In this document: positions 1-5,107 of the stretch, piece by piece | Layout of the letters: each line of letters opens with the position of its first letter | Position numbering within the stretch: position 1 is the stretch's first letter | DNA from: a virus | Lineage: Duplodnaviria > Heunggongvirae > Uroviricota > Caudoviricetes | IMG/VR virus record: IMGVR_UViG_3300000301_000108 | DNA: 5,107 bases | Direction: 5' to 3' (one strand) | Notes under the pieces: generated by a model | Databases searched by the model: none | Told to the model about the DNA's origin: nothing | What the model saw: only the letters and a program-made list of their open reading frames with translations | Program-made: the position numbers and the translations under genes

Positions 1-109
1 AAATCGGTGGAGCTGCATGACAAAGTCATCGGGCATTATCTGAACATAAAACACCATCAATAAGTTGGAGTCATTACCGAAAATACTCAAATGCCCTCCT
101 CATTGGACG

Positions 110-141
110 AAAAAAATGCTGGTGGGAGCACTCCACCAGCA
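110..141 (-). terminator. Rho-independent terminator closing the minus-strand gene array
   Basis: Perfect 9-bp inverted repeat TGCTGGTGG (117-125) / CCACCAGCA (133-141) with a 7-nt loop. On the minus-strand transcript the hairpin is followed directly by a run of 7 U (plus-strand A-run 110-116). It sits about 22 nt downstream of the TGA stop at 163-165. Confidence 0.65.
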
Positions 142-162
142 TTAAAAGTGACACTGTAACTA

Positions 163-1806: not shown

Positions 1807-1820
1807 AGTGCACCTTGTGG

Positions 1821-1886
1821 ATTGCTCTAATAAAAAACATGATGAGTGTACATCACGTTTTAAAAATAATGAATTATTAGAGCAAT
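1821..1886. promoter_or_regulatory. Nested inverted repeat / stem-loop inside the 97-bp intergenic gap (1807-1903)
   Basis: Outer perfect 13-bp inverted repeat ATTGCTCTAATAA (1821-1833) / TTATTAGAGCAAT (1874-1886). Inner imperfect 11-bp repeat AAAACATGATG (1834-1844) / CATCACGTTTT (1851-1861) with a 6-nt loop. On the minus-strand transcript the inner hairpin is followed by a U-rich tract (UUUUUUAUU). Confidence 0.5.
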
Positions 1887-1903
1887 ATTATTCTGATTCT
1901 CGC

Positions 1904-2590
1904 TCAAAAAAATGAGCTGATAAGGGGAAGCCAATCCTCTGACACTTCGCGAGGTCGCGGTTTGCCGTGGAAAAAGATTATTCGGCAGTCTTTTGGTAAT
2001 GCCCCATTCCCCCTGGAGTAACGCGCGCTCGCATATTTCGAACCAGGTTCCACAACATCGGCCTTGTAACTTACAAACCATCCCGGATACAGATCCTGAA
2101 ATGCTGGTGTATCATCACCCATAACCTTCCGCAAAAACCCCTGATCACCCCAGCATTCAGTAGTAACACAACGAGCAATCCAACCTTCCGGATCTTGCCA
2201 GAATGCACTCCAGATATGCGCTTTTACACTATTTGGTATCCACAGGGCACCGCTGCCACGATATTGTGGATGGTAAAAATCCCTAAGCATGGTGAAGCTG
2301 GTTGGTGGATTCTCTAGGATTGGGCGTATATCACCGGCAATAACCGTGTCCAAATCCAGATAGAACAGATCATCGGTTATATCCGGTCGGAACAACTCGA
2401 TTTTCGCCCACCAGCCACGGCACTTTTGCCACTGGTTGATCAATGGGACAACTTTGACGCCAGGTACATGTAAACGCTTCAGGTCTGTCAGGCAAATAAT
2501 TTCATAGCCTTTTGGCAGTTGATTAACCAGCCACTGCACATCGGAAGCGTTATAGTCACCACCAGAGCGAAGAACTAAAGCAATCTTCAT
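1904..2590 (-). CDS. GT-A fold glycosyltransferase, GT8-like (retaining-type signature), about 229 aa
   Basis: ORF from ATG 2588-2590 to stop TGA 1904-1906. Motifs: N-terminal MKIALVLRSGGDYNA (compare GT8 starts such as LgtC MDIVFAADDNYA), DxD-type ...WWAKIELFRPDITDDLFYLDLDTVI (compare LgtC YARLKLGEYIADCDKVLYLDIDVLV), and C-terminal IFFHGKPRP (compare the GT8 H-x-G-x-x-KPW motif). The start could lie further upstream inside N-run 2594-2787. Confidence 0.7.
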   Translation of the reverse strand: MKIALVLRSGGDYNASDVQWLVNQLPKGYEIICLTDLKRLHVPGVKVVPLINQWQKCRGWWAKIELFRPDITDDLFYLDLDTVIAGDIRPILENPPTSFTMLRDFYHPQYRGSGALWIPNSVKAHIWSAFWQDPEGWIARCVTTECWGDQGFLRKVMGDDTPAFQDLYPGWFVSYKADVVEPGSKYASARYSRGNGALPKDCRIIFFHGKPRPREVSEDWLPLISSFF

Positions 2591-4482: not shown

Positions 4483-4598
4483 NNNNNNNNNNNNNNNNNN
4501 NNNNNNNNNNNNNNNNNNNNNNNNNNNNNNNNNNNNNNNNNNNNNNNNNNNNNNNNNNNNNNNNNNNNNNNNNNNNNNNNNNNNNNNNNNNNNNNNNN

Positions 4599-4739: not shown

Positions 4740-4808
4740 ATATGCACTAATTAATTTATTATTTTAAGCAGCATACAACCACTTGTCGCCGTTCAATACA
4801 TGCTCAAT
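4740..4808 (-). promoter_or_regulatory. AT-rich intergenic region, candidate internal promoter for downstream minus-strand genes
   Basis: About 70-bp AT-rich stretch between the VRR-NUC-like gene and the next ORF. The minus strand carries TTGAAC and TTGTAT -35-like hexamers and TATGCT / ATTAAT -10-like hexamers, but no pair has ideal spacing. Confidence 0.25.
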
Positions 4809-4903
4809 NNNNNNNNNNNNNNNNNNNNNNNNNNNNNNNNNNNNNNNNNNNNNNNNNNNNNNNNNNNNNNNNNNNNNNNNNNNNNNNNNNNNNNNNNNNN
4901 NNN

Positions 4904-5107
4904 AAGGCTTATGTATTCCAGGATGGCGGTTATCGCTTGTTCTGCACCATACGCAAGAACGACGTAGTAACCTTCCTCTCTAAGCCTGCGCATCCAGGCG
5001 ATCTGCTCTTTCGTCGGGGCTTTACCATTTGGTTCTTTAAGCTCAATTCGCATGCGGTGATGCTGCCAACTTACTGATTTAGTGTATGATGGTGTTTTTG
5101 AGGTGCT
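4904..5107 (-). CDS. VRR-NUC domain (PD-(D/E)xK-type) nuclease-like protein, partial: 5' end beyond window, 3' end inside N-run 4809-4903
   Basis: Minus-strand frame is open from the window edge. Visible sequence ...RMRIELKEPNGKAPTKEQIAWMRRLREEGYYVVLAYGAEQAITAILEYISL matches the C-terminal half of VRR-NUC domains (E-x-K catalytic motif, then a helix). Such genes are typical of lambdoid early regions. Confidence 0.6.

Follow-up and report, generated by a model that had tools for sequence, protein, structure and literature searches.

The closest described system is the control region of the pmgR-pmgS unit in bacteriophages P1 and P7. In the GenBank records of both phages (AF234172 and AF503408), both arms of the inverted repeat analysed here are annotated at orthologous positions as protein_bind features for 'phage repressor C1'. 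The P1 record places the operators OpmgRa and OpmgRb together with the promoter PpmgR within positions 82152-82217 and adds that OpmgRa 'controls expression of pmgR and pmgS' and that OpmgRb is a 'monovalent C1-controlled operator'; in the P7 record the sites are named Op(sht[a]) and Op(sht[b]). A second relevant P1 locus is OpmgT (formerly Op88, with promoters P1pmgT and P2pmgT), which carries the same 13-nt core followed by NNNN-NN-ATTTTTAAAAC. Op88 also shares the annotated -35 hexamer TTGCTC and -10 hexamer TAAAAC, 17 bp apart, but it stands as a single operator, lacking both an inverted partner and an intervening hairpin. The operator consensus of C1, ATTGCTCTAATAAATTT, has been called asymmetric, and a ternary complex with Lxc has been described (PMC8546580). 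Of the genes under this control, pmgR is reported to be essential by knockout, with mutant heads and tails remaining unjoined and the defect being rescued in trans (PMC9024508), and of the genes that P1-like phage-plasmids have, pmgR and pmgS belong to the 21 that are most conserved (PMC9603915). CRISPRi essentiality data are uninformative for pmgR, because the knock-down missed pmgR itself (PMC10695390).

The locus studied here lies in a viral stretch of 5,107 nucleotides, hereafter the window. Judged by its sequence, the window is P1/P7-like DNA, and the element belongs to an IS-flanked stretch of a P1-like plasmid, not to phage P1 itself. Positions 1500-2580 are 97.7-98.1% identical to phages P1, P7 and other P1-like phages, and are up to 99.7% identical to P1-like plasmids, found in 677 of 5426 complete E. 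coli genomes. The P1 annotation was transferred to this segment by taking the window coordinate as the L001 coordinate minus 1001. The resulting minus-strand gene set consists of pmgS, pmgR, pmgQ/hdmD, ppp, pmgP, pmgO, pmgN and a truncated pmgM. The first gene of the pmgR-pmgS unit is pmgR (shtA in P7; 1588-1806, minus strand; start codon 1806-1804), encoding a protein of 72 aa that is 100% identical to P1 PmgR; the second is pmgS (shtB in P7; 163-1586, minus strand), the ORF of which is interrupted by two N runs. The last gene of the upstream unit is a pmgQ/hdmD homologue (1904-2590, minus strand; stop codon 1904-1906), which is the gene that a first-pass annotation of this DNA had called a glycosyltransferase. 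That annotation had recognised neither the P1 origin of the DNA nor PpmgR between the arms.

The two units are separated by a gap of 97 nt (1807-1903), which is bounded on the minus strand by the stop codon of pmgQ/hdmD and the start codon of pmgR, as first reported. The gap had also been described as the only sizeable non-coding one in the array; it is indeed the largest, yet another of about 66 nt lies between pmgN and pmgM, and within it is the annotated C1 operator Op83/Oppp (4741-4757). A search of the whole window against Rfam in E-value mode yielded no match in the gap, the sole match elsewhere being a chance snoRNA. We consider it highly probable that this gap holds the operators and the promoter from which a P1-like phage-plasmid controls its pmgR-pmgS unit. 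The analysis shows the identity of its sites with the operators annotated in P1 and P7, the near-invariance of the arms and, in distant relatives, their replacement by a lineage-specific repeat. The asymmetry of the operator, the role of Lxc and the RNA-seq step that enter this explanation are taken from the literature.

The outer repeat was recovered by a repeat finder exactly as initially noticed: ATTGCTCTAATAA occupies 1821-1833 on the plus strand and, after 40 nt, its exact reverse complement follows at 1874-1886. Of 3000 dinucleotide-preserving shuffles of the 97-nt gap (31% GC), 1 contained a perfect inverted repeat with arms of at least 13 bp. We read the arms as the conserved 5' parts of two inverted, asymmetric 17-bp C1 operators that face each other, with centres 49 bp apart. 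One is OpmgRa (formerly Op86a; ATTGCTCTAATAATTCA, 1870-1886, minus strand), the promoter-proximal site, which overlaps the annotated -35 hexamer; the other is OpmgRb (formerly Op86b; ATTGCTCTAATAAAAAA, 1821-1837, plus strand), which points the opposite way to Op86a and closely precedes the pmgR ribosome-binding site. The latter is represented by a Shine-Dalgarno-like AAGGTG (1811-1816, minus strand), read from the sequence 4 nt before the ATG at 1806-1804. A small palindrome over the pmgR start (1801-1820) was discarded as a candidate element: it is unconserved, and its upstream arm is the region's most variable spot.

Each of the two operators has three mismatches to the 17-bp consensus, all within the last five positions, and the window holds two consensus matches where 0.02 are expected, a number that none of 200 shuffles gave. 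In the alignment, the sites correspond base for base to OpmgRb and OpmgRa of P1 and to Op(sht[b]) and Op(sht[a]) of P7, and the locus shares with these phages the flanking genes (pmgQ/hdmD upstream, pmgR/shtA downstream), the 13-nt cores, the 32-nt spacing and the orientation. The predicted binding of C1 at Op86a and Op86b follows the GenBank annotation, and the repeat itself is the already described P1 control region Op86a/Op86b-PpmgR.

The outer repeat had initially been proposed as the operator of a dimeric DNA-binding protein. The annotation and the consensus bear out that it is a protein-binding operator, but not that it is a dimer site, as it comprises two separate asymmetric C1 sites. 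The 13-nt arms are 40 nt apart, compared with a typical overall length of 14-20 bp for the site of one dimer, and each arm is a full copy of an asymmetric site that is also found singly, at Op88. The adjacent small proteins, which had been suggested for gel-shift experiments, are the wrong candidates, because C1 is encoded elsewhere on the phage; its gene, c1, lies beyond the 5.1-kb window.

To place the locus among its relatives, approximately 250 loci with relatives of PmgR were gathered, those of P1 type providing 36 distinct versions of the region. Of these, 20 were aligned, which together represent six lineages, namely those of P1, of the window, of Cronobacter phage JK004, of one Salmonella plasmid and two from IMG/VR. 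A scan of GTDB species representatives for PmgR returned only two further E. coli-type loci and one spurious match. The arms hardly vary across about 36 variants; among the 20 aligned ones, 11 of the 13 arm positions are invariant, none is changed on both sides and none covaries; this near-invariance without covariation argues that the arms are a protein-recognition sequence and not an RNA stem. The 17-mers are separated by a constant 32 nt (33 nt in two rare variant types), and the 13-nt arms stand 53 bp apart, start to start, in nearly all P1-like loci fetched. Arms and 32-nt separation are both kept in JK004, the Salmonella plasmid and the two IMG/VR lineages, the PmgR proteins of which are 75-83% identical.

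On the plasmids of more distant relatives from Citrobacter and Pantoea, whose PmgR is 34-35% identical, the corresponding place upstream of the pmgR homologue is taken by another perfect inverted repeat. These replacement repeats read ACCATACTAATT-N20-AATTAGTATGGT and AGATACTAAAATAT-N18-ATATTTTAGTATCT. The Citrobacter motif occurs 15 times (at most two mismatches) in 50 kb of plasmid, compared with 3.2 expected occurrences, and several of its sites are intergenic by the CDS table; this recurrence, together with the intergenic sites, is what would be expected of a repressor regulon with scattered operators, such as the C1 regulon. The general layout is thus kept despite the change of motif, with two putative inverted repressor sites bracketing a short AT-rich core. 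The operators span 66 bp in P1-type loci and 44-48 bp in Citrobacter and Pantoea, a difference of about 20 bp that is too imprecise for helical phasing.

Such a bracket is familiar from other temperate-phage switches, in which two repressor sites likewise flank the -10 hexamer and the start site, and in the Citrobacter and Pantoea P1-like plasmids the same arrangement is built with a different motif. C1 acts as a monomer on asymmetric sites with the corepressor Lxc, unlike the dimers that occupy palindromic half-sites in other temperate-phage switches.

These comparisons also bear on whether the whole nested structure could be one long RNA hairpin, serving as a terminator, attenuator or processing site, with an outer repeat that is no protein site. 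The folding-energy check that had been proposed does agree with nested pairing: for 1795-1915, the minus-strand RNA has a folding energy of -34.6 kcal/mol (z = -5.6; none of 200 shuffles was as good), and the predicted fold includes both the outer and the inner stem, while the plus strand of the same interval reaches -27.5 kcal/mol (z = -3.4). We nevertheless regard a single long hairpin as very improbable. Its outer arms follow the C1 operator consensus and bear that annotation, the invariance of 11 of the 13 outer pairs comes with no covariation, the same 13-mer stands alone at Op88, and the arms of the distant relatives consist of another motif that recurs above chance, in several cases at intergenic sites.

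With the outer arms read as operators, the promoter between them can be considered. The P1 GenBank annotation predicts a sigma-70 promoter, PpmgR, with the -35 hexamer TTGCTC at 1880-1885 (minus strand), inside Op86a, and the -10 hexamer TAAAAC at 1857-1862 (minus strand), 17 bp from the -35. Both hexamers are weak, and the annotated -10 is without the usual final T. Nor is this -10 conserved, as it reads TGAAGC in Cronobacter phage JK004 and TAAAGC in L095, although it speaks for this hexamer that the same ATTTTTAAAAC also follows operator Op88, at the annotated P2pmgT. An alternative -10 candidate of the form TAnnnT is the hairpin loop TACACT (1845-1850, minus strand), a role that we infer. 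Across all C1-type lineages its sequence is TACACT, TACGCT, TATCAT or TATTAT, with the T, the A and the final T constant, and TATCAT is found again between the arms of the unrelated Citrobacter inverted repeat. In TACACT the key A and T are present, but the -35 is poor, and we consider the loop an equally good -10 candidate as the annotated TAAAAC. The annotated -10 is questionable, because TAAAAC is unconserved while the TAnnnT of the loop is constant. A promoter and terminator scan of 1400-2300 called nothing in the gap, either -10 candidate included, and the same scan on the Salmonella relative likewise left the gap without a call.

Published expression data for P1vir fit a promoter at this place. 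At 10 min in a wild-type host, the log fold changes are 7.39 for pmgO, 6.99 for pmgP, 6.95 for ppp and 7.05 for pmgQ, and they are 9.02 for pmgR and 9.99 for pmgS (PMC8201110, Table S1). In a dksA host at the same time, the upstream genes are at 6.1-6.6 compared with 9.0-9.1 for pmgR and pmgS (PMC8201110). Expression therefore steps up 4-8 fold across the gap at 10 min in two hosts (from PMC8201110), which fits a separate early promoter for pmgR-pmgS that starts independently of the upstream unit, PpmgR itself being a predicted promoter. The initial claim that the gap separates two transcriptional units is upheld by the P1 annotation and by this step from pmgQ to pmgR. At the other end of the unit, a strong intrinsic terminator follows pmgS (105-143, minus strand; a T run behind an 11-bp stem in which 6 pairs are G-C; -15.9 kcal/mol), and, read from 143 to 105, it marks the end of the pmgR-pmgS unit. 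Downstream of it, the P1vir value of pap at 10 min is 1.5 log2 units lower than that of pmgS (PMC8201110), and this drop past the pmgS terminator fits a two-gene pmgR-pmgS unit. The 30-min RNA-seq was considered as a test of termination and set aside, since its values are log fold changes with unclear length normalisation and pmgR is very short (PMC8201110).

The timing in these data also speaks to whether the region might be one of the Lpa-dependent late promoters of P1, which combine a 9-bp inverted repeat at -22 with a -10 hexamer. Such an identity would suit the morphogenetic role of pmgR, and a late-promoter pattern derived from the annotated LPpro, LPlyz and LPdar (AAGTnAYTw-N4-TAnnnT) finds one match with two mismatches at 1857-1875. 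The three annotated late promoters, however, read AAGTGACTA, AAGTGATTT and AAGTTACTT, respectively, each followed by N4 and TAnnnT, and the gap's sole match is within chance (6 found, 3.1 expected) and needs window-specific bases that are absent from P1. Moreover, late genes reach only 3-5 at 10 min, when pmgR and pmgS are already high (PMC8201110). A late promoter at this position is thus hardly credible, and we retain the early, C1-controlled PpmgR. Silence of pmgR-pmgS in the prophage, followed by an early switch-on once repression is lifted, would accord with C1 as the regulator.

Between the operators lies the inner imperfect 11-bp repeat (1834-1844 and 1851-1861), in which 10 of the 11 positions are complementary, as noted at first pass. 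The odd pair, 1839/1856, is A.C on the plus strand and G.U on the minus-strand RNA, and it is a perfect G-C pair in P1 and P7. On the minus strand the hairpin (1834-1861) consists of the 5' arm AAAACGUGAUG (1861 to 1851), the loop UACACU (1850 to 1845) and the 3' arm CAUCAUGUUUU (1844 to 1834). The U-rich run that had been noticed behind it is confirmed as UUUUUUAUU (minus strand, 1837 to 1829), which directly follows the hairpin and also forms the distal end of Op86b; pairing with AAAA is also possible for its first four U. The T6 after the hairpin is invariant in all lineages, though the operator consensus at this place is AAATTT. In the P1 and P7 GenBank annotation of the gap the hairpin is unmarked, and no terminator feature appears in the P1 stretches examined.

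The alignment of 20 variants points to conservation of the pairing. The stem core is CGTGATG/CATCACG in the P1 lineage, compared with CATGGTG/CACCATG or CGCCATG in Salmonella, JK004, L095 and L096. Between the P1 and Salmonella lineages, four substitutions have occurred in the 14 core stem positions, and they are confined to two complementary pairs, one changed from G-C to A-U and the other from A-U to G-C, for which we estimate a chance probability of roughly 0.002-0.005. Six further stem pairs vary by wobble only, and 96.8% of the cells in the alignment are paired. The base pairing of the hairpin therefore appears to have been maintained in evolution, although the two compensatory changes may sit on a single branch. 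Folding energy on the coding strand is -11.2 kcal/mol in the window and -13.0 to -13.6 kcal/mol in four other lineages, compared with -5.8 to -13.3 kcal/mol on the opposite strand across lineages; the 7-bp core alone has -6.7 kcal/mol in the window and -6.7 to -9.1 kcal/mol overall. The wobble variants, among them the C-to-T change of the window and A-to-G changes in JK004 and L095, pair on the coding strand only. By a hand tally, single-site changes comprise 4 transversions, about 7-9 transitions that keep pairing on the coding strand and 3 that keep it on the other strand; the excess of coding-strand wobble (p about 0.07-0.17) is no more than suggestive.

With a scan of our own that accepts a hairpin ending at a run of at least 6 T in 8, two hairpin-plus-U sites were found in the window, the gap hairpin and the pmgS terminator, both on the coding strand and after terminal genes. 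Shuffled windows contain a mean of 1.04 such sites compared with the two observed, so that the pattern alone is not rarer than chance. Like intrinsic terminators such as that of pmgS, the gap hairpin forms on the coding strand, has a U run directly behind it and is located just past the final gene of an upstream unit; it differs from the pmgS terminator in its weaker core (-6.7 to -9.1 compared with -15.9 kcal/mol), in being A-U rich and in overlapping a promoter and an operator. The hairpin is absent from the Citrobacter and Pantoea lineages and is thus not essential to the architecture.

It might be argued that the inner palindrome is core promoter DNA only, holding the -10 in its loop or 5' arm and the start site and having no RNA role, so that its symmetry would be incidental or would have a purpose at the DNA level, for example the spacing or phasing of the two operators. 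The invariable TAnnnT of the loop, the TAAAAC that the 5' arm has in common with the Op88 promoter, the -10-like hexamer that the hairpin-less relatives keep between their operator arms and the unremarkable frequency of the hairpin-plus-U pattern would all suit this explanation. Promoter function needs no pairing, however, and yet the four stem substitutions all fall in two complementary pairs; likewise, the coding-strand energy stays constant while the sequence and the opposite-strand energy vary. On balance, we find promoter DNA alone a rather unlikely account of the palindrome.

A different explanation for paired changes is that the palindrome is the site of a second dimeric regulator, encoded by the phage or the host, whose half-sites co-evolved with the protein. 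An 11-bp palindrome with a 6-bp centre between two repressor sites has a shape appropriate to such a role, and symmetric double changes suit a palindromic protein site as well as they suit an RNA stem. The single-side variants are less easily accommodated, since most of them allow a G.U pair on the coding strand but not on the other, and the half-sites are asymmetric in JK004, L095 and the window. In addition, the P1 and P7 records annotate no such site, the -22 box of Lpa is absent, and sites for CRP, LexA and FNR, compared by eye with the consensus sequences, are unmatched. We therefore judge a second regulator quite improbable.

This leaves the reading we prefer for the inner element, in which the hairpin and U6 would form a weak, promoter-overlapped intrinsic terminator for the upstream pmgN-pmgQ unit, a proposal on which we are evenly divided. 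The earlier suggestion of a weak terminator or attenuator gains from the compensatory substitutions, and it loses from the simple scan, which made no call, and from a pattern that is not rarer than chance. Still somewhat more tentative is the broader notion of a conserved terminator inside a promoter: within a module of 66 bp, the same bases would serve two operators, a promoter and a terminator with an insulating role.

Combining these elements, we propose the following course of events. In the prophage, C1 would bind each asymmetric site separately, helped by its corepressor Lxc, with the upstream site Op86a overlapping the -35 region of PpmgR and the downstream site Op86b covering the transcript start. 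Upon inactivation of C1, PpmgR would fire early, and with either -10 candidate transcription would begin within the hairpin or immediately behind it, so that Op86a would cover the -35 or the region upstream and Op86b the first bases transcribed. Transcripts of pmgN-pmgQ would stop at the U6 run, whereas those from PpmgR would escape termination, because a start within or after the hairpin leaves out the 5' arm.

What is new here is the conserved coding-strand hairpin with its U run and the doubt about the annotated -10; the rest is known. The repeat can be named with confidence and belongs here to a P1-like phage-plasmid, of which E. coli has many; automatic annotation of these plasmids leaves out the operators and often pmgR too. 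The conserved hairpin and U run between the operators offer a testable detail, and they may insulate pmgR-pmgS from the upstream unit. The relevance of these findings is limited to work on P1 gene regulation and to P1-derived vectors.

The window also differs from its described counterparts in individual bases, only a few of them within the gap. The distal end of Op86a reads TTCA where P1 has TTCC, and the next two bases differ as well. Relative to both P1 and P7, one base of the stem is changed from C to T, producing the G.U pair, and one base after Op86b is different. Finally, an extra T in the T run at 1908-1914 places the pmgQ stop codon 16 nt upstream of its position in P1.

The four nucleotides at 1817-1820, lying between the C1 repressor operator Op86b (1821-1837, plus strand) and the pmgR Shine-Dalgarno sequence, are hypervariable among P1-like sequences that are otherwise more than 97% identical. 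At least nine versions occur (CTAC, CCAC, CCAT, ATAC, CCAA, TTAC, CTAT, CAAA and CTGC), and very little variation is seen in the operator arms that adjoin them. Given this hypervariability, a small palindrome at 1801-1820, covering the pmgR start codon, is not a conserved element. In the closest plasmid, pTET-GZEC065 (NZ_CP048027), an A-to-G change falls inside the Op86b core (ATTGCTCTGATAA..., positions 2914-2930 of the fetched locus).

On the other side of the gap, the T run at the 3' end of pmgQ/hdmD (1908-1914) has seven T in the window versus six in P1 and P7. The additional T shifts the reading frame, placing the stop codon at 1904 versus the P1-equivalent 1888, and the pmgQ/hdmD gene of pTET-GZEC065 is likewise a frameshifted pseudogene according to its RefSeq annotation. 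For pmgR, reported to be essential (PMC9024508), the PGAP/PLSDB gene list of most P1-like plasmids has no entry (given as 'none') at the position of the tblastn match.

A third annotated C1 operator in the window, Oppp (former Op83; 4741-4757, plus strand, TATGCACTAATTAATTT), lies immediately downstream of the annotated PpmgN, the promoter of the upstream transcription unit. It differs from P1 by one base and from the C1 consensus at four positions, and was therefore missed by our operator search, which was limited to three mismatches.

In the distant P1-like Citrobacter freundii plasmid NZ_CP056338, the motif ACCATACTAATT, or A-ATACTAATT, is repeated above chance, for example at locus positions 13922, 22540, 25607, 31937, 45621, 47627, 49239 and 49271, and several sites are intergenic when checked against the CDS table. 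One site is upstream of a pair of ORFs (25632-25880 and 25947-26807) adjoining the terminase genes; judged by size and position, these may be coi- and c1-like genes. The motif is probably the operator of the C1-like repressor of the Citrobacter lineage, with a specificity unlike that of P1.

Directly 3' of pmgS, a strong intrinsic terminator is predicted on the minus strand at 105-143, where an 11-bp stem with six G-C pairs (-15.9 kcal/mol) is followed by a T run. The annotation of the corresponding stretch in the P1 record has no terminator feature after pmgS. In published RNA-seq of P1vir at 10 min, pap is below pmgS by 1.5 log2 units (PMC8201110).

The window has five runs of N (720-815, 1397-1486, 2594-2787, 4483-4598 and 4809-4903), all of which exceed the P1 stretch that they replace by 76-81 nt, the window-to-P1 offset jumping by the corresponding excess at each run; the same shift is found with pTET-GZEC065 as the reference. 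No single constant converts window to P1 coordinates, and the lengths of ORFs that cross these runs are artificial.

Both borders of the window are IS1 ends, which we compared with the respective termini of the IS1 element carried by P1. The left (1-78, 97% identity) interrupts pap and the right (5056-5107, 100% identity) interrupts pmgM, a VRR-NUC domain gene. Since their orientation is identical, the segment pap'-pmgS-pmgR-pmgQ-ppp-pmgP-pmgO-pmgN-'pmgM is, as read from sequence, a P1 segment flanked by direct IS1 copies. The left IS1/pap junction is present in approximately 40 complete E. coli genomes, while on the right side pTET-GZEC065 carries IS5 in contrast to the IS1 of the window.
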